Below, in pieces: positions 1,018 through 32,000 of a DNA stretch of 32,000 nt. Position numbers and translations under genes: made by a program. Origin of the DNA: Candidatus Saccharimonadota bacterium (lineage in GTDB: Archaea > Micrarchaeota > Micrarchaeia > Micrarchaeales > Micrarchaeaceae). The notes below the pieces were generated by a model. The model ran no database searches and was not told where the DNA came from. It saw only the letters and a program-made list of their open reading frames with translations. The stretch covers positions 744,854 to 776,853 of the forward strand of contig OY969114.1 in assembly GCA_963698035.1 (NCBI GenBank), given 5' to 3'. Numbering within the stretch: the stretch's first letter is position 1; the number at the start of each line of letters is the position of its first letter.

Positions 1018-1123
1018 ACTTTCATCACTTATGCAAAACTAAGCTTTAAGCCTTAGCCCAAGCCCAGCTGGCTGGATTGCACCAAGCTTTTTATTTGATA
1101 TCATTGTATCATTTCCAGAGAGA

Positions 1124-2401
1124 ATGGCTGATTCAATATCATTGATCAACAACCTTTGGGTGCTGATAGCAGCGCTCCTCGTGTTCATAATGACCATAGC
1201 GGTCGGCTTCCTCGAGATGGGCGAGCTCGGCGAGGAATACCGCAAGAGTCTGCTGAAGTCGGTACTCATAATATGCTCCGCATTGTTCTTCATGGCATTC
1301 GTAGGGTTCAACCTTGCATTTGCGCCTACAATAGGGGGCATAATCGGCAACCCATTATACACCGGGCTTTTCCTTGGAGGATTCAACGGCAATGTTCCGG
1401 GACTATTGGCAGGGGTGTGGTGGTCCATGACCTCGCAGTATTTCGGTTCTGGCCTTGCTTTAGGCAGTTATTTCCTGTTCGAAACGGCGTTTGCCGCGGT
1501 CACGCTCGCCCTTGTGGGGGTTGTCGTGCTGAAGAAGATGAGGCTTAAGGCATTCCTGTTGTATTCGGCAGTGTACTTCATAATAATATGGGCGCTGCCG
1601 GCAGCGTGGATATGGAATCCTACAGGCTGGTTGTACATTATGGGCATGAGGGACTTTGCCGGCGGCTTGGTCGTCCATGGGGCTGCGGGAGCAGCCGGAT
1701 TAGGCATAATGTACCAGATATGGAGGGAGGAGAAGAAAAAGCGCTTCAAGCAGAGCCCACAGGTCCCGATAAAGCTCAATCCAATATGGCTTACCCTTGC
1801 CGTGCTGCTGCTCTGGATCGGCTGGTTTGGCTTCAACCCAGGAAGCGTGCTGGCTTTCAACAACAGTACAATGACGGTAGTACTTACAACCTTCCTTGCT
1901 GCGGCGGCAGCCATGTTCTCAACGCTGATTGTCGGGCGCATAAAAGCAAAGCAATTGCGCCGGCACGAATTACTCCTATGCGTTAATGGCATACTCATGG
2001 GCCTAATAGTGATAACACCGCTGGCCGGGTTTGTCAGCCCGCTGAGCGCCATAATACTCGGCATACTGGCCGGCCCGCTCTTTATATACGCCAACCTCTT
2101 CTTCTCCAGGTCCAAATGGTTCACCGATCCGATAGGGCTCCTTCCAGGGCACCTTGTCGGGGGATTATTCGGGGTGCTGATGATTGCGTTCTTTACCCAA
2201 GCGCCTTTCGCCGTGGCATCCGGCAACGGCACACTCCCGAACGGCATCCTGTTCGGAGGTGGAACCGTGGCGGTGGGGCAGCTCGGGATTGAGGTGTTCG
2301 GGATTGTAGTGGTTATGATAACAGTGTTCTTGCTCTCTTTTGTGACATGCGCGGTCATAGCCACAATCATGAAAGGCATAACAACTGATTACAAGCAGTA
2401 A
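1124..2401 (+). CDS. amt: ammonium transporter (Amt/MEP family)
   Basis: 425 aa polytopic membrane protein with Amt signatures DFAGGLVVHGAAGAAGL and WIGWFGFNPGS. Confidence 0.95.
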   Translation: MADSISLINNLWVLIAALLVFIMTIAVGFLEMGELGEEYRKSLLKSVLIICSALFFMAFVGFNLAFAPTIGGIIGNPLYTGLFLGGFNGNVPGLLAGVWWSMTSQYFGSGLALGSYFLFETAFAAVTLALVGVVVLKKMRLKAFLLYSAVYFIIIWALPAAWIWNPTGWLYIMGMRDFAGGLVVHGAAGAAGLGIMYQIWREEKKKRFKQSPQVPIKLNPIWLTLAVLLLWIGWFGFNPGSVLAFNNSTMTVVLTTFLAAAAAMFSTLIVGRIKAKQLRRHELLLCVNGILMGLIVITPLAGFVSPLSAIILGILAGPLFIYANLFFSRSKWFTDPIGLLPGHLVGGLFGVLMIAFFTQAPFAVASGNGTLPNGILFGGGTVAVGQLGIEVFGIVVVMITVFLLSFVTCAVIATIMKGITTDYKQ

Positions 2402-2563
2402 AGGACGCAACCAAGCCTAGCTAGGGGATAGAAAAACGCACTAGGAGTGGGCTAGAACGCCTCTCCACTTCGAAGTGCACAAGAGCTAGAGAGAAGGGAA
2501 GCGTGGAGTTACAGAGCATGCTAGATGGCCCTAGCCCACTCTTTAACGATCTTCTCCTTTTAA

Positions 2564-2884
2564 TTACCTAAACATATTTGTATCGGCAGTCGTCTTTATC
2601 TCTGGTTGCTTGGGCATAGATGGATCAGCTAATTGTTTTTCTAAATTAACTATATTTTCAGATAAGATTTTGACTAGAGCTTTTGCTGTATTTTTGCTTA
2701 TTATAAATTCGCCGATAGCTTGATGCTTCATTCCATCCACAAAAATGAGTTCTATTTGACATTCTTTCTCGATTTTCCCTTTAGCGTCTTTTGCTGCCTT
2801 CATCCTAATTGCTAAAGCAACGTCATCAGCAAAAATTGGCTTGGTGTCAAAGAAGTTTATGCTTTGTTTTTGTTCATCTACCAT
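2564..2884 (-). CDS. hypothetical protein, DUF3467-like by eye
   Basis: 106 aa. The segment IELIFVDGMKHQAIGEFIISKNTAKALVKILSENIVNLEKQL resembles the DUF3467 family pattern. The gene is AT-rich. Function unknown. Confidence 0.6.
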   Translation of the reverse strand: MVDEQKQSINFFDTKPIFADDVALAIRMKAAKDAKGKIEKECQIELIFVDGMKHQAIGEFIISKNTAKALVKILSENIVNLEKQLADPSMPKQPEIKTTADTNMFR

Positions 2885-3014
2885 AAAATCATCGTAATAT
2901 ATTCATTGGTAAAGTAATAAAAGCGTTGATAAAATGGGCTTAATTATCAAAGCCACGCCCTAAGCCAAGCTCCAGCCTAGGAAAGGAGGGGGAGTGGAGA
3001 GGGCTCTCAGAAAG

Positions 3015-3022
3015 CATATAAG
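3015..3022 (+). promoter_or_regulatory. TATA box (CATATAAG) for the SemiSWEET gene
   Basis: Lies about 29 nt upstream of ATG 3045 (leaderless spacing). The same box and context recur at 10593-10601 upstream of the paralogous pseudogene. Confidence 0.5.
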
Positions 3023-3044
3023 GATTAAGGGTTCAATTTGATGT

Positions 3045-3299
3045 ATGTATTATGTTGAAATACTTGGTTTGATTGCAGGCTTCTTCACCACAATGGCATA
3101 TGCCCCACAAGCGATAAAGGCGCTCAAGACAAAGTCCACGAAGGATCTCTCAATCTTATGGCTTTCGATTGCAGGACTTGGAACCGCATTATGGATTTTC
3201 TATGGATTCTTCATAAGTTCCATTCCCATAATACTGTGGAACGTCGGGTCAGATGTGCTAATCGTGATACTCATAATGCTGAAGCTCAAATACGGCTAA
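3045..3299 (+). CDS. SemiSWEET / PQ-loop sugar transporter (single MtN3 unit)
   Basis: 84 aa with three hydrophobic helices and the PQ-loop motif MAYAPQAIKALKTKSTKDLS. Confidence 0.9.
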   Translation: MYYVEILGLIAGFFTTMAYAPQAIKALKTKSTKDLSILWLSIAGLGTALWIFYGFFISSIPIILWNVGSDVLIVILIMLKLKYG

Positions 3300-3466
3300 T
3301 AGCCTAAGCCCTAGCCCAAGCCCCAAAACTTCATATCCTATACCCTAAGGGTCTACGCGGAGAGTTTTTCCCCCAAAATGTCAGCTCATGACTTTTTTCA
3401 TAAGTTTTACGTGCTATCGGCTGAAGCATCCATTGGTTTTATAATAGTTAAATCAGCAGTTTTTCC

Positions 3467-4305: not shown

Positions 4306-4357
4306 TGAACGAGCGAGATAAAAACAGAGCAATACGATATTTAAAAACGGTGGAAAA

Positions 4358-8678: not shown

Positions 8679-8852
8679 AACTCTGTCTTGACACCCAGAT
8701 TATAAATATCTACGCCCAACTAGAGCTCTGCTCATAAAATATCAAACCTGCTCACAAAGTGCCTTAAAAATTGGACTTTATGAGCAAAGCTCCCAACTAG
8801 CCTAGCCCAAGCCCAGGAGAGCTCTTCTGCTCTCTAAAAGCCTTAAAAAAGC

Positions 8853-8861
8853 TTAAATATC
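8853..8861 (+). promoter_or_regulatory. BRE/TATA promoter box TTAAATATC
   Basis: AAAAAAGC-TTAAATATC, 27 nt upstream of ATG 8880 (leaderless spacing). Confidence 0.6.
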
Positions 8862-12639: not shown

Positions 12640-12731
12640 CAAATCTACATAATATATTACGCACAAAACATTAATAAAATTCGTTCCGGCCAAGCCTCAA
12701 GCCCAGAAGAGGAGGAAGGCTCTGAGAAGAC

Positions 12732-12740
12732 ATAAATATC
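12732..12740 (+). promoter_or_regulatory. BRE/TATA promoter box ATAAATATC (with shared leader module)
   Basis: GAGAAGAC-ATAAATATC-ATAATAAAGTGAGG..TGTGATAAT-ATG, 35 nt before ATG 12767. Confidence 0.65.
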
Positions 12741-13234: not shown

Positions 13235-13328
13235 GGCTAGGTAGAAAGGATTAACAAATTTGGGGGGAATGCTGGGGCTTCATAGAGCCTCTCTCCGTCT
13301 ATAAACCTTCTAAAAAAGCATAAATATC
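13231..13328 (+). repeat. 98-nt promoter-bearing intergenic repeat, copy 1
   Basis: CTAGGGCTAGGTAGAAAGGATTAACAAATTTGGGGGGAATGCTGGGGCTTCATAGAGCCTCTCTCCGTCTATAAACCTTCTAAAAAAGCATAAATATC. It aligns end to end with 14291-14388 at roughly three-quarters identity by eye. It ends in the TATA box. Confidence 0.75.
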
Positions 13329-14240: not shown

Positions 14241-14275
14241 AAGCTCAAGCCTCCTAACCAAGCCTAACCTAAGCA
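14241..14275 (+). repeat. AAGCCN-type hexamer tract
   Basis: AAGCTCAAGCCTCCTAACCAAGCCTAACCTAAGCA. It belongs to the C-rich tract family found just after many stop codons. Confidence 0.6.
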
Positions 14276-14290
14276 TCTAAGAGAAACGCA

Positions 14291-14388
14291 CTAGGGCTAG
14301 GGAGAAGGGATTCAAAGATTTGTGGGAGAATGCTAAGGCTCCCTAGAGCCCTCTCCGTCGAGAAGGCTCTAAGAAAAGCTTAAATATC
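14291..14388 (+). repeat. 98-nt promoter-bearing intergenic repeat, copy 2
   Basis: CTAGGGCTAGGGAGAAGGGATTCAAAGATTTGTGGGAGAATGCTAAGGCTCCCTAGAGCCCTCTCCGTCGAGAAGGCTCTAAGAAAAGCTTAAATATC. It contains an internal inverted repeat, AGGGCTAGGGAG / CTCCCTAGAGCCCT. Confidence 0.75.
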
Positions 14389-15476: not shown

Positions 15477-15490
15477 ATAGAGCCTCACTA

Positions 15491-15540
15491 GGGCTAGAGA
15501 GAAGGGAAGCTAGAGCACCCCTCTAAGGGGCCCCGAGAGC
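15491..15540 (+). repeat. about 50-nt intergenic repeat (GGGCTAGAGAGAAGGG..CTAGAGCACCCCTCTAAGGGGCCC), copy 1
   Basis: GGGCTAGAGAGAAGGGAAGCTAGAGCACCCCTCTAAGGGGCCCCGAGAGC. Near-identical to 20022-20070 and more diverged from 18996-19044. Confidence 0.75.
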
Positions 15541-15583
15541 ATGCTAGAGGGCCCCTAGGCCCTCTCCCAAGGACTAGAAATGC

Positions 15584-15592
15584 ATAAATATC
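15584..15592 (+). promoter_or_regulatory. BRE/TATA promoter box ATAAATATC
   Basis: CTAGAAATGC-ATAAATATC, 30 nt upstream of ATG 15614 (leaderless spacing). Confidence 0.6.
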
Positions 15593-16214: not shown

Positions 16215-16730
16215 GTGGGGGTTGAAAATCGCAAATACTCGGTCTATAGCTCAAACGTGATGGGCATCACAAAAGACGGCAGGCAGTACCTGAGGGATGT
16301 TCTCGTGCCCGCACTGAAAAAGCAGGGCAACATAGAAATCCTGGATCCGTGGGAATCTACATTGGCCGTGCGGGAGGAGGACATGCCAAGCAATCCGCCA
16401 TGCATGAGCAACGAGGAAAGAATGAAGATAGGCGTGGAGAACTTTGGCATGATCGACAGGGCCGATTTTATACTTGCTAACCTGGACGGGCGAGACGTTG
16501 ATTCTGGAGTCGGCGCAGAAATAGGATACGCCTATGCAAAAGGCAAGAAGATAATAGGATACTATAGAATTGATCCCGCTGCGTCGGGGTATAATGGACC
16601 CATACCGGAGAACATCCAGATTGAGGCCCCTATAAAACTATCCGGTGGGATAGTGGCAAGGAACCTGGACGACGCCATCAAAAGGCTTCAGGCAATGATA
16701 GAAACTGCCCCAAAGCTAGACAATGGCTAG
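16215..16730 (+). CDS. nucleoside 2-deoxyribosyltransferase / DNPH1-like family protein
   Basis: 171 aa. LANLDGRDVDSGVGAEIGYAYAKGKKIIGY matches the family motif. GTG 16215 lies about 25 nt after a TTTATATT box; ATG 16260 is an alternative start. Confidence 0.82.
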   Translation: MGVENRKYSVYSSNVMGITKDGRQYLRDVLVPALKKQGNIEILDPWESTLAVREEDMPSNPPCMSNEERMKIGVENFGMIDRADFILANLDGRDVDSGVGAEIGYAYAKGKKIIGYYRIDPAASGYNGPIPENIQIEAPIKLSGGIVARNLDDAIKRLQAMIETAPKLDNG

Positions 16731-16734
16731 AGAG
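16707..16734 (+). repeat. 28-nt exact repeat, copy 1 (GCCCCAAAGCTAGACAATGGCTAGAGAG)
   Basis: Identical to 20601-20628. Here it encodes the last residues (APKLDNG) and the stop codon of the 16215-16730 gene. Confidence 0.9.
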
Positions 16735-16745
16735 AAGGGGAGCGG

Positions 16746-17051: not shown

Positions 17052-17140
17052 GTATATAATAAATGATTTGGGTTATTATATTTATCTTTATCTCAAACCC
17101 TAGCTAAACCATACCCAAGCCTCAAGCCAAGGAAGCTAGA

Positions 17141-17231
17141 TAAGGGCTGGAGAGAAGAGGAGCGTGTTTCTAAAAGGGAATTCTAGGGCTCCCTAGAGCC
17201 TCCCTCTGCCTCTTAGAAATACTTAAATATC
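17141..17231 (+). repeat. promoter-bearing intergenic repeat, copy 3 (diverged)
   Basis: TAAGGGCTGGAGAGAAGAGGAGCG..GGGAATTCTAGGGCTCCCTAGAGCCTCCCTCTGCCTCTTAGAAATACTTAAATATC. It has the same module order as 13231 and 14291, and the TATA box lies at 17223-17231. Confidence 0.65.
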
Positions 17232-17454: not shown

Positions 17455-17495
17455 GGAGCTATTTTGGGCTCCCTAGAGCCCCAGAAACGCAAGCT

Positions 17496-17504
17496 ATATA
17501 TATC
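17496..17504 (+). promoter_or_regulatory. TATA box (ATATATATC) inside a TA-rich near-palindrome, relBE promoter
   Basis: CTATATATATCTATAGGTATATATATATAAC. It lies 30 nt before ATG 17526. Confidence 0.55.
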
Positions 17505-18016: not shown

Positions 18017-18154
18017 TGGTTTCTTCTTCCCTAGCCCACGCTCAGAGAGCGAGAGGGGAAGGGGCCAGAGAGAAGGGGAGCTATCTTGGGCGCTGCTGGC
18101 GCCTTAGAGTGGGCTAGAGGGCCTGCGAGGCCCTCCTGAACCTTCTAAAAAGAC

Positions 18155-18163
18155 TTATATATC
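18155..18163 (+). promoter_or_regulatory. BRE/TATA promoter box TTATATATC (with shared leader module)
   Basis: CTAAAAAGAC-TTATATATC-TAGAGAAATAGAG..AAGTGATAAT-ATG, 39 nt before ATG 18194. Confidence 0.6.
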
Positions 18164-18193
18164 TAGAGAAATAGAGAAAGTGCAAGTGATAAT

Positions 18194-18974: not shown

Positions 18975-18995
18975 GTAGCTAAAGAGAAGCGCAAA

Positions 18996-19044
18996 GGGCT
19001 AGAGAGAAGGGGAGATAGAGCACCTCGCTATGGGGCCCCGAGAG
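18996..19044 (+). repeat. about 50-nt intergenic repeat, copy 2 (diverged)
   Basis: GGGCTAGAGAGAAGGGGAGATAGAGCACCTCGCTATGGGGCCCCGAGAG. Confidence 0.65.
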
Positions 19045-19049
19045 TTGGC

Positions 19050-19069
19050 GGGGGGCTAGGGCGGGAGGG
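19050..19069 (+). other. G-quadruplex-type motif
   Basis: GGGGGGCTAGGGCGGGAGGG: four runs of at least three G with loops of 1-4 nt. Confidence 0.5.
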
Positions 19070-19134
19070 CTAAACACCCCAGAGAGGCCGAACATTTATA
19101 CGCTTTACTTGAGAGGGCTAGAATAGGCGATTCT

Positions 19135-19347: not shown

Positions 19348-19488
19348 AAGCGTGAAGGTCATCAAGAAACCACGCCATCACAGTTCTTTCAAGCCAAATA
19401 GCTTAAAGCCTTAGCCCAAGCCCCCTCCCAAAGGCCCGAGAGCAGGCGGGAGAGAGAAGGGGGGGAGAAGGCTAGGTCCTGAAAGGCT

Positions 19489-19497
19489 ATAAATACC
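19489..19497 (+). promoter_or_regulatory. BRE/TATA promoter box ATAAATACC
   Basis: GAAAGGCT-ATAAATACC-TTGATTGCGCAACGGCATT-ATG, 28 nt before ATG 19517. The downstream GCGCAACGG is shared with the promoter at 27183. Confidence 0.55.
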
Positions 19498-19999: not shown

Positions 20000-20021
20000 A
20001 GAGCTTAACAGAACCACACAA

Positions 20022-20070
20022 GGGCTAGAGAGAGGGTGAGCTAGAGCACCCCTCTAAGGGGCCCTAGAGC
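20022..20070 (+). repeat. about 50-nt intergenic repeat, copy 3
   Basis: GGGCTAGAGAGAGGGTGAGCTAGAGCACCCCTCTAAGGGGCCCTAGAGC. Confidence 0.75.
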
Positions 20071-20114
20071 GGGCTAGGCTCCCTTGCCTTCTTCTCACTC
20101 GTCAACCTTCAGAG

Positions 20115-20531: not shown

Positions 20532-20547
20532 AGCTAAGCTTCTCAAC

Positions 20548-20607
20548 AAAGCCTTAAAGCCTTTAGCTATCTAGCTAAGCCACTAGCTAAGCTAAGCCAA
20601 GCCCCAA
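20548..20607 (+). repeat. extended AAGCC/TAGCT tract
   Basis: AAAGCCTTAAAGCCTTTAGCTATCTAGCTAAGCCACTAGCTAAGCTAAGCCAAGCCCCAAAG. This is the longest example of the C-rich tract in the window. Confidence 0.6.
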
Positions 20608-20628
20608 AGCTAGACAATGGCTAGAGAG
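20601..20628 (+). repeat. 28-nt exact repeat, copy 2
   Basis: Identical to 16707-16734. Its 3' part overlaps the stop codon and last codons of the minus-strand gene 20621-21448. Confidence 0.9.
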
Positions 20629-21448
20629 GGAAGCTAGACCCCAGCATCTTATAAATCAAGTTCTGCGTCCCATTCACAGGCAGGATTAGGCGCTCAATTT
20701 TTCTTGCTAGCGCAAACGAGCTTACATACATCATGTGCGGAAGTTTTATGCCTTTAAGCTGTTCGTAAGACCGGTGTCCAAAGTTCAATGCTGACAAAAT
20801 TCCTTCTAAATCAGAGTGTGTAATATACTCCTCTTCAAGCTGGTGTAAAGTAAGCCTCCTTTCCCTAAGCCTTCTATAAAGGAGTAATGACGCCATACGC
20901 GGGAATTCCCTGTAATCACAGAAACGCACATCAAAACCTGCGTTCCTGTATTCCTTTTTGGCCGTGATGATGCCGGGCAAATTCTGCGTGCTACCAACGA
21001 TAATCATCTTGCGCCTTAAGATTTCCTCGCTTTTAAGTCTTATGATCGCCGCCCGAAGAAAATTTGAATATCCTCTGCCCCTATATTTCTTGCCTATGAA
21101 AAACGTAGTACTTTCCAGCACCCTTCCGGCATCAGCACCCTTTGCAGTCTTATAATTTAATTGCACCATTCTAGTATAACCTATAGGAGTAGGGCTTTTG
21201 AGATCGGTAAGGATAACAGAATCGCCATTATAAAAAGAATCGGTTAAATCCTTTAGCGAGACCGGGACCAGTTTTTTCTCATCGGCTATCTCTCCATGCA
21301 GCGTTTTTAACATTATAGATATAGTCGGGTTCCTCCTGCTGCAGGAGTAAAGAAAGGGGAAACCTCCCCAAAAAGCAAGCCCATATTTTTGGTTTATATT
21401 CTCTTTTGGAACAGTGAAACCGAATAGTTGCATAGTGGATCGTACCAT
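20621..21448 (-). CDS. GNAT-like acyltransferase-fold protein (tentative)
   Basis: 275 aa. FFIGKKYRGRGYSNFLRAAIIRL resembles GNAT motif A. The start lies 2 nt after the upstream gene's stop. Confidence 0.6.
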   Translation of the reverse strand: MVRSTMQLFGFTVPKENINQKYGLAFWGGFPFLYSCSRRNPTISIMLKTLHGEIADEKKLVPVSLKDLTDSFYNGDSVILTDLKSPTPIGYTRMVQLNYKTAKGADAGRVLESTTFFIGKKYRGRGYSNFLRAAIIRLKSEEILRRKMIIVGSTQNLPGIITAKKEYRNAGFDVRFCDYREFPRMASLLLYRRLRERRLTLHQLEEEYITHSDLEGILSALNFGHRSYEQLKGIKLPHMMYVSSFALARKIERLILPVNGTQNLIYKMLGSSFPL

Positions 21449-23532: not shown

Positions 23533-24012
23533 ATGAAGATTAGACCGTTGCGATACTCTGATGCAAAAGAAGCTGCAAAACTCTTTGAGGAAACGTTCAA
23601 GCAGCTTACGCGTTACTATATTGCCAAGGAACTGAACATCGGACTAAAGAAATATTCCGCTAAAGGTCTGCAAGAGCACATGAAAGAGGGAAAGTATCTG
23701 TTTAGAGTAGCAGAGGATAGAGGTAAGATAGTTGGAGTTGTTGTGTGTGATTTTCCTGTTCAAGGATTGTGCTGGATAGAGTGGCTGGCAGTCAAGAAAA
23801 GCTATCGACGCAGGGGTGTTGGAAGTATGCTAGCCAGAAGCTTGGAGACACCAGTTCAAGGCAAATGGAACAAAATTATGACCAGAAGCAGAATGGGTAA
23901 CAATCCATCAATCAATCTATTCAGCAAGAAACTGGGTTTCACCAAAGTAGCAACTCTTAGAAGACATACACGCAAGAGGAATGCCTATACTTGGGAAAAG
24001 CAAATAAGCTAA
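23533..24012 (+). CDS. GNAT-family N-acetyltransferase
   Basis: 159 aa with motif A LAVKKSYRRRGVGSMLARSL. GGTGG lies 4 nt before the ATG. Confidence 0.9.
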   Translation: MKIRPLRYSDAKEAAKLFEETFKQLTRYYIAKELNIGLKKYSAKGLQEHMKEGKYLFRVAEDRGKIVGVVVCDFPVQGLCWIEWLAVKKSYRRRGVGSMLARSLETPVQGKWNKIMTRSRMGNNPSINLFSKKLGFTKVATLRRHTRKRNAYTWEKQIS

Positions 24013-24251
24013 GCTAAAGCCAAGCCCCAAGCCCAGAGCATAGAGGGCTAGAGAGAAGAGATTTATAGGGGAATGAGCGCCCCTAGGCGCCTTAGAGATG
24101 GCTAGGGGCCCGGGACAGGCTGGCCGGCAATAGTGCAAACGGAGCGGAAGTATTTACCTCGCTGTTTAGGGATACGCATTTTAATTTAAGCAATCCTAAT
24201 GTTACCGCGACGGACAACGTCCGTCCTGTAAGAGAAAAGGTGCGTGCATAA

Positions 24252-25604
24252 ATGGGGAAATTAAAGGGGATGTCGGCTAGAGGCCTTAGAGCCTACAAAT
24301 TTGTCGTGCAGCGTGCGAAAGCATCAAAGAAGCTCAGCAGAAAAGACAAAAGACTGGTGCTCAAGGCGAATAAAATCATTGCCTCTGAAATCCACAGGTT
24401 TGTCATCGATGACCTAAAGGGCATACGTGCTGAGTCTGTCTTGGAGATAGGATGCGGTGATGGAGGTCTGTTAAGGACGCTCTCCAAGCAGAAGGGATTC
24501 GCGAACTCGCGGCTGTTCGGCATAGACAACTCGCCAGAGGAAATAGTAAAGGCAAGGCGTATGTCCAAGGCTGCAAAATCGGTGCATTATAGTGATGGCA
24601 GGAATGACCGGATCCCACATGCAGGCAAATTTGATTTGATATTCACAGTCCTTTCCTTCCATGAGTGGAAAAAAGGGAACGAGAGCATACCATACATACT
24701 CAGCAGGCTCAATAAGAACGGCTCGTTCCTGATTTATGATACGCCTCCAGTAAAGATAAAAAATCCGAAGCCGCGGAGGAAGGCGGGTATCAGATTTAAA
24801 CTGCAGAAGAACAGCGCATTGATTAAGGCTACCTTTGTTGCACCATCCGCTCCTTCGAGTCTCGTCTTCGATAATAGAACATTTGTTAGATATAGTCGCA
24901 AATGGAGCAAATCTAACAATCCTTATCTTGTAAAATTAAAGAAAAAGTACAAACTGGGAAGACTTGCATCAGTAGATAATGACCAGTACAAAACGCTGAA
25001 AAATTGTGTTAGGTGGGTCCACAGCAGATGGGAACACTCGGGTGTAAACGTCCCAAAGAAAAGCGATACGATTTCGATACTTGATGAGGCAAGAAAGGGC
25101 AAGAGATTCAGATGTGTCGAATACTCAATAGTATTGAACGCATGCCTAACGGCGCTTGGCATAAAGTCCAGGACGATTAATATCATGAAAAAGAGCATAG
25201 AGATGAAAAAGCCCTGCGCCGGGCACGTGATAGTTGAGGCGTATTTGAATGATTATGGGAAATGGGTGATGGCTGACGGGCAGTCCGGTTCCATACCGAT
25301 GTTAAAAGGCATTCCGCTTAATGCTGTGGAGTACCAGAAGGCCATAGTCAATAAAGAACCTCTGAAGATCTGGGGGCATGAAAATAAGGCCGGGAAGGCG
25401 TACACTAAGTGGATATTTCCTTACCTTTTCTACTTCCGAATCTGGCTGGATCCAAAGGTCCTAACCCTTGTCCCGTTAGGTGCGAAGAATCCCAGGAAGT
25501 TCGAGGGAGTTCCGTATCCTCCTAGAAATGTTGCCGTGTATACAAACTCTCTAAGAACGTTCTACGCCAAGCCTCCAAGCCCCCAAGCCTGGGCGGGAGG
25601 CTAG
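24252..25604 (+). CDS. fusion protein: class I SAM methyltransferase + transglutaminase-like cysteine protease fold
   Basis: 450 aa. The N-terminal half has VLEIGCGDGGLL, DLIFTVLSFHEW and LNKNGSFLIYD. The C-terminal half has RFRCVEYSIVLNACLTALGIKSR, GHVIVEAY and WVMADGQ, a Cys-His-Asp transglutaminase-core pattern. Confidence 0.8.
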   Translation: MGKLKGMSARGLRAYKFVVQRAKASKKLSRKDKRLVLKANKIIASEIHRFVIDDLKGIRAESVLEIGCGDGGLLRTLSKQKGFANSRLFGIDNSPEEIVKARRMSKAAKSVHYSDGRNDRIPHAGKFDLIFTVLSFHEWKKGNESIPYILSRLNKNGSFLIYDTPPVKIKNPKPRRKAGIRFKLQKNSALIKATFVAPSAPSSLVFDNRTFVRYSRKWSKSNNPYLVKLKKKYKLGRLASVDNDQYKTLKNCVRWVHSRWEHSGVNVPKKSDTISILDEARKGKRFRCVEYSIVLNACLTALGIKSRTINIMKKSIEMKKPCAGHVIVEAYLNDYGKWVMADGQSGSIPMLKGIPLNAVEYQKAIVNKEPLKIWGHENKAGKAYTKWIFPYLFYFRIWLDPKVLTLVPLGAKNPRKFEGVPYPPRNVAVYTNSLRTFYAKPPSPQAWAGG

Positions 25605-25611
25605 GGATGGG
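25591..25611 (+). other. G-quadruplex-type motif
   Basis: GGGCGGGAGGCTAGGGATGGG. It spans the stop codon of the 24252-25604 gene. Confidence 0.45.
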
Positions 25612-25650
25612 CGTGGCTAGGATTTTAAGGGTTTGGAGAGAAGGTAGGTT

Positions 25651-26133: not shown

Positions 26134-26184
26134 GGATATATTACAGGAATATCTTGGTCTACAAAAAGTTTAAGTTAGGCCCTA

Positions 26185-26217
26185 GGGCGGGAGGCTGGGG
26201 AGGGAGAGGGGCTAGGG
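26185..26217 (+). other. G-quadruplex-type motif
   Basis: GGGCGGGAGGCTGGGGAGGGAGAGGGGCTAGGG: six runs of at least three G. Confidence 0.5.
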
Positions 26218-26284
26218 AAGGCCTGTCTGGCTCTGGAAAGCTAAGGAATAAATCTTCTATTATCATACACTTTAAGCGATACTT

Positions 26285-27061
26285 ATGAGTGTTAGAATTA
26301 TTTCGCTAAATATATGGGGAGGTAGACGCAGAACTGATTTGCTAGATTTTATTGAAAGAAAATCTAAAGATATAGACATATTTTGCTTCCAAGAAGTGCT
26401 GAACAAGAAAGTGAGCAAAGCTATAGAGCGTGAAAAGCTAAAATATTCCGGTGGCAAGTACCATGAAACACCGTACATCTACAAAGATCTATGTCGTGTT
26501 CTAAAAGGCTTCGATAATCGCACATCTAAAAGCACCAACACGGGCGGCGAAAAGCTTGGAATATTTGTAAGGAAGGGGCTTGCCATAAAAAGGTTGCTCG
26601 AAGTGGCTACGGATCCGTATAAGGTCAAGGTATATGATAGAAAGTTCGTGGTTAGGAGCATGATCCAAGTAGCGACCATAGAGAAAGATGGCAAGGAATT
26701 CAATATAATAAACATCCACGGCCTCTGGCAAGGCGGTGGCAAAAAGGATACCCCAGAAAGAATAAAGCAATCGGCCCTGCTAATAAAGCTGATAAACAAA
26801 GTTGATAGAAAAAAGCTTGTGCTTTGTGGCGATTTTAACCTAGAGCCAAATACCAAGAGCATAGGGATGCTTGATGGAATACTAAGGGATTTGATTAAAG
26901 AGAATAATATCAAAACAACAAGGAACAAGCTTTACACTCATATATTGAAAGGTAAATTCGCGGATTACACATTTGTGTCAAAAGACATCAAGGTGAAGAG
27001 GTTCAAGGTGCTGAAGGACATGGTCTCCGACCACATGCCCATGTACATAGAAGCTGAGTAG
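26285..27061 (+). CDS. endonuclease/exonuclease/phosphatase (EEP) family protein
   Basis: 258 aa with SLNIWGG, FCFQEV, NIHGLW, GDFNLEP and SDHMPM. Confidence 0.9.
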   Translation: MSVRIISLNIWGGRRRTDLLDFIERKSKDIDIFCFQEVLNKKVSKAIEREKLKYSGGKYHETPYIYKDLCRVLKGFDNRTSKSTNTGGEKLGIFVRKGLAIKRLLEVATDPYKVKVYDRKFVVRSMIQVATIEKDGKEFNIINIHGLWQGGGKKDTPERIKQSALLIKLINKVDRKKLVLCGDFNLEPNTKSIGMLDGILRDLIKENNIKTTRNKLYTHILKGKFADYTFVSKDIKVKRFKVLKDMVSDHMPMYIEAE

Positions 27062-27134
27062 CCTAGCTAAGCCCTCCAAGCCCCCAGGCCCTAGAGAAGG
27101 GGAGCTATTCTGGGCGCCCTGGAGCTTTAGAGAT

Positions 27135-27156
27135 CCCCACGCTAGCGTGCGTGGGG
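27135..27156 (+). other. conserved GC stem-loop, copy 2
   Basis: AGAGAT-CCCCACGC-TAGCGT-GCGTGGGG-GCC, with an 8-bp stem. Compare 23451-23472. Confidence 0.6.
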
Positions 27157-27182
27157 GCCTTGAGAGAAGCTCTCCCGAAAAC

Positions 27183-27191
27183 ATAAATATC
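27183..27191 (+). promoter_or_regulatory. BRE/TATA promoter box ATAAATATC
   Basis: CCGAAAAC-ATAAATATC-TGAACGCGCAACGGATTTACC-ATG, 30 nt before ATG 27213. Confidence 0.6.
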
Positions 27192-27212: not shown

Positions 27213-27635
27213 ATGGCAAACGTAGTACTCGTATCCTGTGGCAAGCACAAGCTAGATCACAGTGCTAAGGCGGCAGAACTCTATATCGGCCCGCTCTTCA
27301 CTGCAAGTATGCAATATGCGAGAACATTGAATCCAGATAGGATATTCATTCTATCGGCTAAGCACGGGCTGCTCGGGCTTGAAACTGTCATAGAACCCTA
27401 TGATGTTACACTGGACGGTAAGGATGAAGCAGTGCAAAAAGCTTGGGCTAAGAAAGTCTTAGCACGCCTAGCTAGCGAAACAAGCTTGACCGGAGACCGC
27501 TTTACAATCTTAGCCGGAGAGAACTACTACAAATATTTAACCCCTCATCTCCGCACTTGTGAGATTCCGATGCGCGGGCTAACAATCGAGGAACAATTGC
27601 AGTTCCTTAGGGCCAGGTTACGACAGTCAGCTTGA
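27213..27635 (+). CDS. conserved hypothetical protein (possibly DUF6884-like)
   Basis: 140 aa with VLVSCGKHK, IFILSAKHGLL and IEPYD. I recall this pattern from an uncharacterised family but cannot verify the family name. Confidence 0.65.
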   Translation: MANVVLVSCGKHKLDHSAKAAELYIGPLFTASMQYARTLNPDRIFILSAKHGLLGLETVIEPYDVTLDGKDEAVQKAWAKKVLARLASETSLTGDRFTILAGENYYKYLTPHLRTCEIPMRGLTIEEQLQFLRARLRQSA

Positions 27636-27660
27636 GCTCAAGCCTCAAGCCCAAGCCCCA
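27636..27660 (+). repeat. AAGCCN hexamer tract
   Basis: GCTCAAGCCTCAAGCCCAAGCCCCA. It starts directly after the TGA stop at 27633-27635. Confidence 0.6.
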
Positions 27661-27666
27661 GGCCCC

Positions 27667-27704
27667 GGGCCCGGGCGGGAGGGGGAGAGGGAGAGCAGGG
27701 CGGG
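27667..27704 (+). other. G-quadruplex-type motif
   Basis: GGGCCCGGGCGGGAGGGGGAGAGGGAGAGCAGGGCGGG: seven runs of at least three G in 38 nt. Confidence 0.5.
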
Positions 27705-27714
27705 AGGCTAGACC

Positions 27715-28246: not shown

Positions 28247-28295
28247 ATTAACACCATATCAATACAGCGCTAATAGATATAAATAGCTTGTGGTA

Positions 28296-28386
28296 GCCAA
28301 GCCCTCCCCTCCGCCAGATCCCTAGCAAGGCCCCGGGAGGCGAGCGAGCCGGGAGGCGAGCGGGGAGAGGGGGAGAGGGGCTCGGG
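28296..28386 (+). repeat. GC-rich spacer repeat family, copy A
   Basis: GCCAAGCCCTCCCCTCCGCCAGATCCCTAGCAAGGCCCCGGGAGGCGAGCGAGCCGGGAGGCGAGCGGGGAGAGGGGGAGAGGGGCTCGGG. It has an internal tandem GGGAGGCGAGCGAGCC and ends in a canonical G4 motif at 28362-28386. Confidence 0.75.
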
Positions 28387-28459
28387 ATGGCCCTGGGAGG
28401 GAGGCTATGGTTAAAGCCTTAAATTCCTTGTTATGGAGAAGTAAGCTAGAAGTGCTCTT

Positions 28460-29326
28460 ATGTATTTACCCATACTAGCTGGCCTTGTTGCTGCGCTATT
28501 TTGGGGGCTATCCGATTATCTTATTACTAAGCCAACAAGAGCTCTTGGGCAGTATAGGACAACAGCTTACGCTATGCTATTTAGTACGATAGTTCTCCTG
28601 CCGTTTCTGTTGCTTACTGGAATCAATCTTCACATTAGCCCATTGGTGTTGTTATTGGCTATTTTGTCATCAATAGGTGCGTTCGTAGGCTTCTTTTTCG
28701 CTTATAGGGCGTACAAGATTGGCGATCTTTCAATTACTGCACCTATAGTTGGCTCCTATCCAGCTATCATAGTCTTGGGCTCTGTGCTAATCCTTGGAGA
28801 CAAGCTAACTCTTGTAGAGATCGCTTCCATAATCACCATAATAGTTGGAATAATACTGGTGTCAACGAGATTGAGCTCATTCAAGCATAAGCGAAAGCTG
28901 GTCGTAGCTGGAGTGGGGAGCGCTTTAATCGCAATGCTATTTCTTGGCACACCTGGTATTTTTGCTGGCGCTTACACTGTAATCATAGGCTTTGTTTTGC
29001 TGAGCCTAATGTGGAGGAGCATAACTAGCGCCAGCGGGTTTATAACCGGACACTTTGCAAAGCAGGACATGCGCCTGCCAGCAAAACGCTATCTGCTACC
29101 CATAATTGGCGCAGGGGTAACAGACGCATTTGCGGTACTAGCATTTTTGTATGCAGTCCAAGTTAAGAGCTCAACGCTTCCAATAATATCTGCTATATCG
29201 GGCTTTGCTGGTGCTGTTACTGTGATATGTGCCTTTATCCTGCTCAAAGAAAGGCCAGAAAAGAACCAGTGGCTTGGCATTACGCTTGCAGTCATAGGTG
29301 TTATTGCTCTCTCTTACTTTGCCTAG
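28460..29326 (+). CDS. EamA/DMT-superfamily transporter
   Basis: 288 aa with ten hydrophobic helices in two EamA-like halves. Confidence 0.88.
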   Translation: MYLPILAGLVAALFWGLSDYLITKPTRALGQYRTTAYAMLFSTIVLLPFLLLTGINLHISPLVLLLAILSSIGAFVGFFFAYRAYKIGDLSITAPIVGSYPAIIVLGSVLILGDKLTLVEIASIITIIVGIILVSTRLSSFKHKRKLVVAGVGSALIAMLFLGTPGIFAGAYTVIIGFVLLSLMWRSITSASGFITGHFAKQDMRLPAKRYLLPIIGAGVTDAFAVLAFLYAVQVKSSTLPIISAISGFAGAVTVICAFILLKERPEKNQWLGITLAVIGVIALSYFA

Positions 29327-29344
29327 CTAAGCCTAGCTTCTAAG

Positions 29345-29395
29345 CCCAAGCCCTCCACCCAGATCCCTAGCAAGCCCTGGAGGGCGGGAGAGAGA
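29345..29395 (+). repeat. GC-rich spacer repeat family, copy B (short)
   Basis: CCCAAGCCCTCCACCCAGATCCCTAGCAAGCCCTGGAGGGCGGGAGAGAGA. It lies between convergent genes and is in the same orientation as copy A. Confidence 0.7.
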
Positions 29396-29398
29396 AAG

Positions 29399-29719: not shown

Positions 29720-29732
29720 AAACGAGACACCT

Positions 29733-29891
29733 TTATGCTGGTTGCTTTATTCTAGTAATGAGCCTGTGCTTTTCTTGTTCTCTTAAACTAGCTATCGCTG
29801 CCTTTTCAAATTCCGATATCGATATCTTCTTCTTAAGCCTTTTAATCCCGAGCATCTTTCGCAAGGCTTCGACAGTGCTTGACTTTACCAT
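29733..29891 (-). CDS. vapB: putative VapB-type antitoxin (52 aa, below the track cutoff)
   Basis: Hand translation gives MVKSSTVEALRKMLGIKRLKKKISISEFEKAAIASLREQEKHRLITRIKQPA. It ends 13 nt before the vapC start. On the minus strand it is preceded by TTTATTATATC and a GTGATGCT-ATG motif. Confidence 0.55.
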   Translation of the reverse strand: MVKSSTVEALRKMLGIKRLKKKISISEFEKAAIASLREQEKHRLITRIKQPA

Positions 29892-29945
29892 AGCATCACA
29901 TAATACCTAGCACCTCTAAGATATAATAAACCTAGCTTACTTTTA

Positions 29946-30003
29946 GCCAAAGCCCCGGAGGGCGAGCGAGCCGGGAGGCGAGCGTGGAGAGGGGGGCGTG
30001 GGA
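29946..30003 (+). repeat. GC-rich spacer repeat family, copy C (partial)
   Basis: GCCAAAGCCCCGGAGGGCGAGCGAGCCGGGAGGCGAGCGTGGAGAGGGGGGCGTGGG. It lies between divergent genes and is in the same orientation as copies A, B and D. Confidence 0.7.
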
Positions 30004-30020
30004 AGCGCTCGTTGAAAAGT

Positions 30021-30029
30021 ATATATATC
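30021..30029 (+). promoter_or_regulatory. BRE/TATA promoter box ATATATATC (with leader module)
   Basis: TGAAAAGT-ATATATATC-ATAAAAATGCATAAGCTTTGTTGAT-ATGCCA, 34 nt before ATG 30055. Confidence 0.55.
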
Positions 30030-30345: not shown

Positions 30346-30360
30346 CCACGCTAAGCACCA

Positions 30361-30448
30361 AGCCAAGCCCTCCACCAGATACCTAGCAAGGCCCCGGAGG
30401 GAGCCGGGAGGGCGAGCGAGCCTGGAGGGCGAGCGGGGGAGAGGGGCT
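30361..30448 (+). repeat. GC-rich spacer repeat family, copy D
   Basis: AGCCAAGCCCTCCACCAGATACCTAGCAAGGCCCCGGAGGGAGCCGGGAGGGCGAGCGAGCCTGGAGGGCGAGCGGGGGAGAGGGGCT. Confidence 0.75.
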
Positions 30449-30486
30449 ATCACAAAGGCTTTATTTCTATTCCGAGCTATGGAAGT

Positions 30487-30831: not shown

Positions 30832-30944
30832 GAGCGTTCGTAAAGAAGGCGTTTGAAAAAGAGCTAGCAGAATGGAAGGCTCTGATAAAAGCACTAGCTT
30901 CAGAAAGACTAGCGCATGCCATGCAGAAACAGAAGATGAGATAA
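30828..30944 (+). CDS. possible small partner protein of Doc (38 aa)
   Basis: Hand-found ORF MRAFVKKAFEKELAEWKALIKALASERLAHAMQKQKMR. Its ATG overlaps the doc stop (ATGA). Positional evidence only. Confidence 0.35.
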   Translation: MRAFVKKAFEKELAEWKALIKALASERLAHAMQKQKMR

Positions 30945-31017
30945 TACTATTTTTAAGAGCCTAAAGCCCTAAGCCCATAGGAGGCGCCTGGGGGCGCGGG
31001 GGAGGAGAGGGTAGGTA

Positions 31018-31026
31018 ATAAATATC
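31018..31026 (+). promoter_or_regulatory. BRE/TATA promoter box ATAAATATC (with shared leader module)
   Basis: ATAAATATC-TAAATAAAGCTAGAATCGTGTGATAGA-TTG-GCA. It aligns with the 17223 module and places a TTG start at 31054. Confidence 0.6.
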
Positions 31027-31053
31027 TAAATAAAGCTAGAATCGTGTGATAGA

Positions 31054-31401
31054 TTGGCAACTGCTGCTACACCGATGAAAATATCATTCGGCGAGTCTTT
31101 TCATCCTACAATGATATTGGATGGTACGAAAGATACAACAATACGCTTGTCAGTACGTGATCTGAAGGAAGGGAATATCATTGTTCTTGTTGATAGGGAG
31201 GGAAAGGAGTTCGGAAAAGCTACAATAATTAGCGTTAAGATGACAACGCTTGGAAATCTTACAAAAGAAGACATGGAAGGCCATGAAAAATACTCATCGC
31301 AAAAGGAATTGTATAGAACATTTCAAAAGTATTATCCAAATATCAGCGTTGGTGCGGAAACGCCAGCACAGGTAATAAAGTTTAAGCTCATAAAAGCCTA
31401 A
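31054..31401 (+). CDS. ASCH-domain (PUA-like) protein
   Basis: 115 aa with ISFGESFHPTMILDGTKDTTIR ... GNLTKEDMEGHE ... VIKFKLI, a typical ASCH layout. The TTG start at 31054 is supported by the leader alignment; ATG 31075 is the alternative. Confidence 0.8.
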   Translation: MATAATPMKISFGESFHPTMILDGTKDTTIRLSVRDLKEGNIIVLVDREGKEFGKATIISVKMTTLGNLTKEDMEGHEKYSSQKELYRTFQKYYPNISVGAETPAQVIKFKLIKA

Positions 31402-31532
31402 GCCCAGAATATACACCCTATATCTCCCTGAGAGGAGGAGGCGCCTGGGGAGGAGGGCTTTCTGGTTCTGGGAGGAAGGGGGAGTCCTGAGAGGGTGGTA
31501 ATGTTTAAAGCCTTTTATTGAGAAGAGAGGAT

Positions 31533-31910
31533 ATGGCAGAAACATTTATCGTGCGATTCTCGAGCCATGATGCTGATTTAAGAGCCATGGATGCTATGGC
31601 CAGATTAGGCAGAGTACATAGTACAGAGAATGGAGATAATTTCATAAATAGAAGACAGCTTGAAGAGCTTCAGAGGCTTGAAATACCTTATAAGCTCGTG
31701 GGCCCTGCGCCACAAAATCAAACCGTAGAAGCATGGCAGAATGTTATAGATGCTGCATACAGGCATGCAAATAGAGGTAGAATCGGAGAAGCCACTGACT
31801 TGCTTCGAAAAGGTGCGCGCCTTTATCCGGAACACGAGAAAGATTTTACTGATGTGACTGCTCTTATTGTTGGAAATCATTTACGTTCGAAAAGAGGACC
31901 TGGTCATTAA
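31533..31910 (+). CDS. hypothetical protein
   Basis: 125 aa from ATG 31533; the track start is TTG 31518. It lies about 30 nt after TGTTTAAAG. No motif recognised. Confidence 0.55.
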   Translation: MAETFIVRFSSHDADLRAMDAMARLGRVHSTENGDNFINRRQLEELQRLEIPYKLVGPAPQNQTVEAWQNVIDAAYRHANRGRIGEATDLLRKGARLYPEHEKDFTDVTALIVGNHLRSKRGPGH

Positions 31911-31969
31911 CATAATATGATAGATAAAATCTATTTCTATGAATTAAGCCCAAGCTCATGGCCTCCTGA

Positions 31970-31993
31970 GGGAGGGGGATGGGGGCTCTGGGG
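31970..31993 (+). other. G-quadruplex-type motif
   Basis: GGGAGGGGGATGGGGGCTCTGGGG: four G-runs with loops of 1-4 nt, at the window edge. Confidence 0.45.
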
Positions 31994-32000
31994 AGGAGGG

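Follow-up and report, generated by a model that had tools for sequence, protein, structure and literature searches.

The question raised by this locus is what the DNA between its genes is made of and what it does there. The window, by which we mean the whole stretch of 32,000 nucleotides (nt) analysed (contig OY969114.1, positions 744,854 to 776,853), begins with the 5' end of guaB (IMP dehydrogenase, 1-340), and all that lies to the right of this gene, an array of about 31 kb, consists of accessory genes. An earlier note, made from the letters alone, had described nearly every intergenic spacer as a series of GC-rich modules in a common order: (i) a C-rich tract of AAGCCN or TAGCCN hexamers, (ii) a purine box, (iii) short GC hairpins or G runs and (iv) a promoter-like box. 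By following up this description, we found that the array is divided into at least 30 promoter-to-stop units, and that mosaic spacers stand between them, all pointing one way. Modules i-iii are best described as a previously undescribed, lineage-specific repeat family, whereas the promoter part is known biology. The explanation that we prefer, tentatively and with a confidence just short of even, is a new archaeal family of polarised mosaic spacers, which would mark the boundaries of units and supply recombination points in a cassette-like array.

Module order and polarity

First, we compared motif counts with shuffled-sequence controls. The motif classes were present at or near the places where the earlier note had read them, and all of them exceeded the controls. 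The purine box GGCTAGAGAGAAGGG (up to 3 mismatches) gave 14 matches, all on the + strand and including those at 2484, 14295, 15492, 16725, 17145, 18063, 18997, 20023, 24046 and 27087, against 1.25 ± 1.1 after shuffling. The C-tract pattern WAGCCNWAGCC (up to 1 mismatch) gave 25 matches against 10.7 ± 3.4, with every exact copy on the + strand, and the box ATAAATATC (up to 1 mismatch) gave 33 against 12.3 ± 3.6, nine of its ten exact copies being on the + strand. Perfect GC hairpins (stem of at least 5, loop of 3-7) were found 16 times in 5.2 kb of spacer compared to 3.0 ± 1.5 in shuffled sequence, a five-fold excess; their density in coding sequence was 0.5 per kb. Short words were also strongly biased between the strands of intergenic DNA, as for CAAGCC (25:0), AAGCC (48 versus 4 for GGCTT), CTAGAG (16 versus 1 for CTCTAG) and GAGAAG (21:3).

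Second, we annotated modules by rule in all 38 intergenic regions of at least 40 nt. Wherever modules occurred they followed a single order, that is C tract, purine box or G tract, hairpin and TATA box, which confirms the common order claimed by the earlier note. A strict C or purine/G module was present in about 25 of the 38 regions and in about 30 when degenerate copies were counted, so that "nearly every spacer" was generous. In the repeat part, an A/C-rich microsatellite of (A/T)AGCC(N) units, which begins at or in the stop codon, is followed by GGGCTAGAGAGAAGGG or by a G/A minisatellite, and then by one to three GC hairpins. With Tandem Repeats Finder, the C tracts were resolved into 6-8-nt units in 2-4 copies and the G tracts into 6-17-nt units, in arrays that are short and imperfect. 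The short hairpins are located between the purine box and the transcription factor B recognition element (BRE) of the promoter, many of them 0-5 nt past CTAG or CTAA, and several share a CCTA loop on differing stems (GGCTC, GGGCC and GCGCC; CCCCT in contig L185, described below); the count of hairpin pairs is descriptive only, since instances were picked for pairing and the count is hence circular. Among the repeat families of the window, 31 were direct and only two were inverted pairs, both chance-like.

Third, modules i-iii kept their + polarity regardless of the strand of the flanking genes. In the divergent regions (1018, 2885, 8679, 12649, 17052, 28247 and 29892), the C tract begins just past the TATA box of the minus-strand gene and is present though a + strand gene ends at none of them. 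In the convergent regions (2402, 20000, 27636 and 29327), the C and G parts reach the stop codon of the minus-strand gene and the promoter part is missing, and at 20545-20640 two minus-strand genes have a + oriented module between them. Tabulated against gene direction over the window, modules i-iii were thus co-oriented, and a reverse-complement module was found beside none of the 15 minus-strand genes. Because a C-rich stretch followed by a G-rich one is symmetric under reverse complementation, that pattern does not itself define a direction; the true polarity lies in the composition that both halves share on the + strand, poor in T and containing A.

Module iv is an ordinary archaeal BRE/TATA promoter, whose orientation follows the gene that it serves. 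Most start codons have an (A/T)TAAATA(T/C) box 27-37 nt upstream, itself immediately preceded by AGAAA(A)GC (repeat families D3, D5 and D12), and several starts are also preceded by GTGATA, which resembles a Shine-Dalgarno (SD) sequence. In intergenic DNA, 14 ATAAATATC-type boxes start 27-74 nt before an ATG, 12 of them at 27-37 nt. With BRE and TATA ahead of most starts, the sequence of the window is archaeal. The earlier note had taken all ATAAATATC boxes to be on the + strand whatever the gene strand. This was a misreading, since minus-strand genes have their boxes in reverse orientation, 20-30 nt from the start codon (for example at 8702, 28279, 17077 and 23411), and the real polarity resides in modules i-iii. 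In particular, the box at 8702, read as a + box beside a minus-strand gene, is ATAAATAT, which nearly equals its reverse complement and is found 24 nt ahead of a minus-strand ATG at 8678; it is therefore the TATA box of that minus-strand gene and no evidence of polarity. The layout, CTCT, then BRE AGAAAGC, then TATA ATAAATATC, then a short leader, shares with the archaeal core promoter the A/T octamer, the purine-rich AGAAAGC ahead of it and the short distance to the start codon. There is no difference in kind, apart from the extra CTCT or GGCTCT upstream of the BRE and from the conservation, across several non-homologous genes, of about 45 nt that run from TATA box to SD-like motif and include the leader.

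This promoter-leader, (A/T)TAAATATCAT(A/G)ATAAAGTGAG...TGTGATAnnATG, is common to ORFans at 6801-6851, 12721-12771, 13309-13359, 17212-17262, 18139-18196 and 31007-31056, and to contig L195 (540-600). Several of these ORFans start with Met-Pro (ATGCCA), and the TTTTGTGATAATATG junction recurs at two internal genes, 13749 and 18387. In an all-against-all blastp search, the shared-leader proteins showed no mutual similarity. A provirus or plasmid origin for these units was rejected, with zero matches in PHROGs or NCBIfam.

Spacers at the ends of genes

The strictly delimited modules total 2.36 kb and are poor in T (A 27, C 26, G 34 and T 14%). The earlier note had found the spacers GC-richer than the genes; this holds for the modules (59% versus 45.6% in coding sequence), and only marginally for all intergenic DNA (47.0% versus 45.6%). 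CTAG occurs 63 times in 5.2 kb of intergenic sequence versus 79 times in 26.8 kb of coding sequence, that is about four-fold more densely in spacers (for example at 15477-15580 and 18030-18150). Stop trinucleotides are likewise in excess, with 128 on the + strand and 122 on the minus strand versus 80 ± 7 and 59 ± 6 after shuffling, and of 27 modules 10 have every one of the six frames closed, versus 2.1 ± 1.2. About ten genes receive their stop codon from the spacer itself, as with TAATAGCC at 3297, GGCTAG at 16728 and the reverse-complement CTA at 20621, and also at 24010, 27059, 29324 and 31399.

Some gene ends are entangled with spacer sequence. The 28-nt exact direct repeat GCCCCAAAGCTAGACAATGGCTAGAGAG at 16707-16734 and 20601-20628 provides the last eight codons and the stop of a + strand gene at its first site, and at its second holds the stop of a minus-strand gene on the opposite strand. 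The methyltransferase/transglutaminase open reading frame (ORF) 24252-25604 runs through a C tract of (CCAAGCCT)x3 at its 3' end (25560-25604), so that its product ends in ...AKPPSPQAWAGG and its stop codon lies inside GGCTAGGG; the original 3' end of this ORF may have been replaced by spacer sequence.

Oligo-T is the usual signal for termination in Archaea. Here it is nearly absent, as a run of T5 or longer was found within 100 nt past the stop in only 3 of 35 genes. Sites resembling a hairpin followed by T numbered 25 versus 18.5 ± 4.9 in shuffled sequence, with none in the + strand spacers; for want of enrichment, bacterial-type intrinsic terminators were rejected. The spacer thus takes the place of the usual oligo-T terminators. 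A search with the covariance models of Rfam 15 gave no match, neither at the gathering score nor at E up to 1.

These features suggest how a spacer could act as a directional unit boundary. As the ribosome leaves the mRNA, the C tract would be exposed, and a CA/CC-rich, unstructured tract just past the stop might serve as the entry or cleavage site for factor-dependent 3'-end formation of the aCPSF1/FttA type. The hairpins would then stabilise the 3' end, and stops in all frames would cap any ORF that became joined to a spacer. For aCPSF1/FttA, cleavage at CA or CC dinucleotides of nascent RNA that is exposed has been reported (PMC8501993). The likeness to such sites, and to Rho utilisation (rut) sites, lies in a stretch that is rich in C and in CA/CC, has little structure and begins at the point where the ribosome comes off the mRNA. 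Unlike them, the tracts here are 20-60 nt long, with one G per hexamer and no U tract, which limits the comparison to a functional analogy.

Gene order between strains and competing explanations

Before the spacers are compared between strains, it matters that they are real. Independent Logan contigs of run ERR10755947 matched the window at 100% over 1-11017, ~19954-28373 and 30774-32000 (11 kb, 8.4 kb and 1.2 kb), spacers included, and an assembly artefact was therefore rejected. The ends of the same-strain Logan contig L209/L210 (~19954 and 28373) fall in repeated spacers of families D6 and D1. Contig ends inside multi-copy spacers are to be expected, as short-read assembly tends to fragment such arrays.

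The lineage is rare in the searchable collections. A purine-box scan gave only 8 single, unrelated matches in genome contigs, and a scan of metagenomes gave 31 loci, of which only L185 and L195 are relatives; the C-tract pattern was unusable for such scans because it matches Lys-Pro coding repeats. Four contigs bear on the spacers. First, L013, from the Joint Genome Institute (JGI) sample 3300010341, is syntenic with and 97% identical to 576-3416. All four of its indel events are in spacers: a 28-nt GAGCTAGAGC-type submodule is extra after the C tract 1041..1075, two C-tract hexamers (12 nt) are absent from the spacer 2945..3024, and 2 nt in a G run and 1 nt elsewhere account for the others. 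Its spacers carry 3.4% substitutions versus 4.2% at third codon positions of Amt. Second, L011, from another sequencing run, holds the gene 31533-31910 at 100% identity between neighbours that differ on both sides. The identity begins at GAGAGGGTGGTAATG just upstream of the promoter and fades in the downstream G tract near CTCTA(G/A)GAA. Third, L185, from the same sample as L013, carries family-a spacers (defined below) and has a YafQ toxin-antitoxin unit (84%) and an endonuclease unit (92%) reordered, with orientation kept, among units that the window lacks; the spacer family flanking its YafQ unit differs from that in the window. Fourth, L195 has a family-a spacer and the promoter-leader between genes unrelated to any in the window. 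Cassette-type reordering and presence or absence of units were thus seen in L011 and L185, and in these alignments gene order between strains breaks in the spacers. The idea of the earlier note that the spacers are the footprint of cassette insertion is thus partly supported, by units with different neighbours and breakpoints in spacers; canonical attC sites were absent, and no recombinase was found among the window proteins scanned, which were most of them.

Within the window, two spacers are less alike the further apart they lie (Spearman -0.33 for similarity against distance, permutation p<0.0005), which supports local homogenisation. Two spacer families can be told apart by place: family a, with the purine box and CTAGAGCACCCCTCTAAGGGGCCC, is concentrated at 13-24 kb, and family b, with CCAGATCCCTAGCAAGG and GGCGAGC and GGGGAGA repeats, at 27.6-31.5 kb. 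The earlier note had proposed a terminator/insulator-plus-promoter unit homogenised by gene conversion. The promoter and the local homogenisation were borne out, and a terminator or insulator role is one that the spacers may have. Since they are dispersed direct repeats, they could also serve as crossover points for homologous or microhomology-mediated recombination, which would delete, insert and shuffle whole units while preserving their orientation.

Several observations weigh against this preferred combination of boundary and crossover point. First, the near-neutral substitution rate of the spacers argues against strong sequence constraint. Second, whole-spacer folding of 33 intergenic regions was no better than that of shuffles (mean z -0.31 on the + and -0.46 on the minus strand); the C and G halves therefore form no special long hairpin, and a single hairpin of C tract and G tract was rejected. 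Third, the evidence for swapped units consists of two short contigs, L011 and L185. Fourth, other archaeal contigs with the homologous toxin-antitoxin unit show gene-level indels at which such spacers are missing, so that unit turnover does not need them. Finally, the reported aCPSF1/FttA termination cooperates with U tracts, which the spacers lack. In addition, the next 1.9 kb to the right of the window, seen in L010, contain three module-free intergenic regions, and module-free multi-gene stretches also exist within the window.

Because the IMP dehydrogenase of the window is closest to Nitrososphaerota, ten of the contigs compared (L211-L220) were counted as carriers of a homologous toxin-antitoxin unit and not as relatives, and the absence of modules there is uninformative on this genome. 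Together with L012, their toxin-antitoxin comparisons (79-84% identity) cannot place breakpoints because intergenic DNA is unalignable at that distance. By comparing L211:10657-11058 with L212, L213 and L214, we observed four structural variants in four samples between the toxin gene and a bPH gene, including a 454-bp versus 38-bp replacement as well as the loss of one small gene by a 371-bp deletion that bears a CATATG filler; GC-rich spacers were not found at these junctions. The YafQ unit has homologues next to ArgRS and a tRNA gene (L217 and L219), next to a ribosomal-protein operon (L220) and within a variable region (L211), and given these differing contexts it moves alone as a TATA-to-stop module. 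In L012, a gene-free stretch of 700 nt (433-1130) with some spacer-like sequence (CTAGCCCGCTCCCAACCCCCGCCTAGCTAGCAGGGGG) and possible structure lies upstream of a GHMP kinase gene (84% identical), and the kinase gene is followed directly by a tRNA gene on the minus strand.

Three other explanations account for part of these data. The one that survives best, though we regard it as unlikely, is a site-specific platform resembling an integron, in which the spacer or a core within it (for example the GGCT(C)TAGA end beside the BRE) would be the recombination site for an enzyme acting in trans, a recombinase whose gene lies elsewhere. Such an enzyme would excise and insert promoter-to-stop units in one orientation, and the fixed polarity would be that of the site, as with attC. 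The co-oriented array, the reversed toxin-antitoxin payloads flanked by + spacers, the shuffling of units between strains with orientation kept and a cargo typical of cassettes (four toxin-antitoxin pairs, three GNATs, methyltransferases and ORFans) all fit this explanation, and integrons have been reported in Archaea (PMC9668308). The left ends of units also coincide in four comparisons at GAAAG or GAGAG just past CTCT(N)(A/G); however, BRE conservation explains this equally well, and the right breakpoints are ragged, one being 5 nt past the stop and another ~90 nt past it. Integron core pairs (RYYYAAC...GTTRRRY, 50-160 nt apart) were at chance level, with 2 matches versus 2.1 ± 2.0 after shuffling and none in spacers, and the two matches come from opposite strands of a single intragenic site (24911-25014). 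Neither an attC-like folding signal nor an integrase, transposase or recombinase domain was found in the 32 kb, most of whose proteins were scanned against Pfam. As in integron arrays (CALINs, which have no integrase, or the archaeal integrons of Ghaly et al. 2022), a polarised repeat separates short accessory units that are mostly co-oriented and make up a long array, toxin-antitoxin units can be reversed, and unit order and content vary between strains. Unlike in integrons, we found no R''/R' cores, no attC-like fold, no integrase in the window and imprecise breakpoints, and each unit has its own promoter, which typical integron cassettes do not. A canonical integron was rejected, as both the core-site scan and folding were negative.

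Slightly less probable again is that the spacers are largely a neutral by-product, with slippage-prone tracts expanded in relaxed island DNA and homogenised by gene conversion, the promoter alone being functional. This would account for a substitution rate near that of third codon positions, for indels in repeat units, for short and imperfect tandem arrays, for similarity that decays with distance and for folding no better than that of shuffles. It does not predict a fixed module order with uniform polarity over 31 kb, tracts that start exactly at stop codons, T depletion with enrichment of CTAG and stops, the five-fold hairpin excess, or the reappearance of this module family in a different sample (L185 and L195).

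The least probable of the three invokes hairpin elements that resemble repetitive extragenic palindromic (REP) sequences, or elements of the IS200/IS605 type, which a RAYT or a TnpA-type HUH enzyme would mobilise as single-stranded DNA. Polarity would then result from insertion into one template strand during replication and not from gene orientation, and the mosaic from repeated nested insertions. GC hairpins are indeed enriched in intergenic DNA, polarity is independent of gene strand, and the common CCTA loop on differing stems, often 0-5 nt past CTAG or CTAA, recalls tagged REPs; yet the compared hairpins were chosen for pairing, which makes their count descriptive only, and their stems are not conserved as within REP families. 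Moreover, hairpins make up a small fraction of each spacer, the C and purine tracts resemble microsatellites and not palindromes, no RAYT or TnpA gene was found in the window, and the decay of similarity with distance points to local homogenisation and not to dispersal by transposition. Like REPs and bacterial interspersed mosaic elements (BIMEs), the spacers contain short GC-rich palindromes in many intergenic copies (16 hairpins versus 3.0 ± 1.5). Like BIMEs, pneumococcal BOX and Neisseria Correia elements, they are intergenic, multi-copy and modular, with GC hairpins and a set order of submodules whose number varies by copy and strain, and such elements can carry or affect promoters and transcript ends. 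They differ in that all copies are co-oriented, whereas REPs alternate within a BIME and Correia ends are inverted. They also differ in their archaeal host, in the lack of any sequence similarity, in a body that is mostly A/C and A/G tract resembling microsatellite and not palindrome, and in abutting stop codons and replacing terminators. BIMEs are marked by REPs that alternate in orientation, by a conserved GTAG or CGTC tag and by an associated RAYT gene. In the window, by contrast, all repeats are direct, the recurring tag is CTAG or CTAA, and no HUH transposase was found among the proteins scanned; alternating REPs of the BIME type were rejected given the 31 direct families versus 2 chance-like inverted pairs. 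The statement of the earlier note that no equivalent was described is thus roughly fair for Archaea, whereas the bacterial BIME, BOX and Correia elements and integron arrays are close conceptual relatives.

Miniature elements with an outward promoter, also suggested by the earlier note, are not supported as transposons: because of the same ratio of direct to inverted families there are no terminal inverted repeats, and a miniature inverted-repeat or other transposon was rejected, since the modules are nowhere flanked by inverted repeats (no search for target-site duplications was made).

The array and its significance

By curating the genes of the window, we counted 52, of which 37 are on the + and 15 on the minus strand. 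The cargo includes Amt, two PQ-loop paralogues, methyltransferases, a GHMP kinase, a SET-domain protein, a dCMP deaminase, a PMT-type glycosyltransferase, a phosphoribosyltransferase, a nucleoside deoxyribosyltransferase, three GNATs, an EamA transporter, ICMT, DUF6884 and ASCH proteins, an endonuclease/phosphatase and four toxin-antitoxin pairs (ParE, YafQ/RelE, PIN and Doc). Many window proteins are ORFans that gave no match in Pfam, PHROGs or NCBIfam. The best named relatives of the guaB product are from Nitrososphaerota (65-67% identity), one JGI protein reaching 74%, whereas the nearest named homologue of a window toxin is from Micrarchaeales, which had at first suggested a DPANN archaeon.

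Read from left to right, the spacers are all on the + strand. The first is a C tract, AAGCTTTAAGCCTTAGCCCAAGCCCAGC, at 1041..1075 in a divergent region, ahead of the promoter of Amt with its TATA-like box near 1090. In the convergent region at 2402..2540, a degenerate C tract and a purine box (2484-2498) stand in CTAG-rich sequence that has no promoter. The divergent region at 2945..3024 holds a full spacer, with a C tract from 2950, a G tract from 2978 and CTCTCAGAAAGC plus ATATAAGG as BRE/TATA of a PQ-loop gene, and downstream of it an (AGCCCA) x3.8 C tract (3300..3325) begins within a double stop TAATAG. The two PQ-loop paralogues (3010-3302 and 10589-10881) are 79% identical in DNA from BRE to stop only, between unrelated flanking spacers; the second copy is split into two ORFs in the Logan gene calls. 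The TATA box ATAAATAT at 8702..8710, on the minus strand as read from its sequence, belongs to the gene 7971-8678, and the spacer at 8795..8861 has a C tract, a GAGAGC/GCTCTC hairpin, a BRE and TTAAATATC. Beyond it, a 397-aa ORFan overlaps by 4 nt a 156-aa protein, together forming one two-gene unit between spacers (8880-10540); the smaller protein has a weak DisA-type nucleotide-binding (DAC) match, below the Pfam cut-off (E=0.0024). A short spacer at 12690..12740 is made of a C tract, GAAGAGGAGGAAGG and CTCTGAGAAGAC plus ATAAATATC.

Family a begins at 13235..13328 (repeat families D17 and D18), where the purine box overlaps a stop codon and is followed by a decayed hairpin and BRE/TATA. Full copies are found at 14241..14388 (C tract, purine box at 14295, hairpin GGCTC-CCTA-GAGCC at 14337, BRE and TTAAATATC) and at 15477..15592 (purine box at 15492, hairpins at 15518 and 15547, BRE and ATAAATATC; D6). 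At 16707..16743, a purine box gives the stop of gene 16215-16730 and is part of the 28-nt repeat shared with 20601-20628 (D8). The divergent region at 17095..17231 contains another full spacer (C tract, purine box at 17145, hairpin at 17187, BRE and TTAAATATC). A short spacer at 17455..17504 has the hairpin GGGCTC-CCTA-GAGCCC and a TATA box within a run of TA; this (TA)14 microsatellite (17495-17522) is the TATA region of an RHH-ParE toxin-antitoxin operon, whose promoter could possibly be tuned by slippage. At 18030..18165, CTAGCCC and a purine box (18063) occur with three hairpins (18039, 18089 and 18117), a BRE and TTATATATC. The family-a spacer at 18975..19105 has two purine boxes, an GGCGGGAGGGCTAG repeat and a TATA-like box at 19095, and the spacer at 19390..19497 has a C tract from 19406, a G/A minisatellite from 19438, a BRE and ATAAATACC. 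Another family-a copy, in the convergent region at 20000..20085, has a purine box at 20023 and a hairpin at 20049 and lacks a promoter; it belongs to D6, with 86% identity to 15468-15533. The C tract and purine-box-like sequence at 20545..20640 lie between minus-strand genes, and their CTAG is the stop of 20621-21448(-) (D8).

Further to the right, the spacer at 24008..24125 has a C tract that includes a stop codon, a purine box at 24046 and the hairpin GCGCC-CCTA-GGCGC, and the one at 25560..25650 is the (CCAAGCCT)x3 C tract inside ORF 24252-25604 followed by a G-rich stretch. The homology with L185 starts at the BRE of a G-rich spacer (26175..26262) with the promoter CTCTGGAAAGC plus AATAAATC. 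A full spacer at 27059..27191 comprises a C tract with a stop codon, a purine box at 27087, an 8-bp hairpin at 27135, a BRE and ATAAATATC. Family b fills the convergent region at 27633..27714 with (CAAGCCC)n and then GGGAGA repeats (76% GC). In the divergent region at 28290..28430 it begins just past a toxin-antitoxin promoter with a C tract, CCAGATCCCTAGCAAGG and a GGCGAGC/GGGGAGA minisatellite (D1 and D11). Its other copies are at 29324..29398 (convergent, with a stop codon within the C tract), 29940..30029 (divergent, followed by a BRE and ATATATATC; D1, 92% identical to 28326-28373) and 30346..30470 (with the 17-nt repeat GAGCGAGCCGGGAGGGC x2.3). The spacer at 30958..31026 has a C tract, the hairpin GCGCC-TGGG-GGCGC, a G tract and ATAAATATC. 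The last two spacers enclose the unit 31533-31910. Identity with L011 starts in the first (31399..31520) at ~31480 (GAGAGGGTGGTAATG), the left breakpoint of the swapped unit, and the C tract and first G-rich part of the second (31943..32000) accompany the unit in L011, the identity being lost near CTCTAGGAA, past the window edge as seen in L010. Over 13.5 kb of this part of the array there are four toxin-antitoxin pairs (17526-18016, 27715-28246, 29399-29891 and 30487-30944), two of them reversed relative to the spacers.

An archaeal gene boundary normally consists of an oligo-T terminator followed by a BRE/TATA promoter, and mosaic intergenic repeats (BIME, BOX and Correia) as well as cassette platforms (integrons) are essentially bacterial concepts. 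If the spacers truly mark unit boundaries, they would represent a terminator-free, T-poor way of delimiting archaeal transcription units. They would also give the rapid turnover of accessory genes, in uncultivated archaea of soil and peat, a concrete substrate at the sequence level, and the series of C tract, purine box, hairpin and BRE/TATA would be a simple signature for finding such arrays in metagenomes. It is improbable, to about the same degree as the neutral by-product, that the spacers are the recombination sites of a new archaeal gene-capture system analogous to integrons, with polarised sites that are not attC, a putative recombinase, self-expressed promoter-to-stop cassettes joined into a long chromosomal array, and termination of transcription and of translation in all frames. 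If a dedicated recombinase were found, the array would represent a second, independent cassette-capture system.

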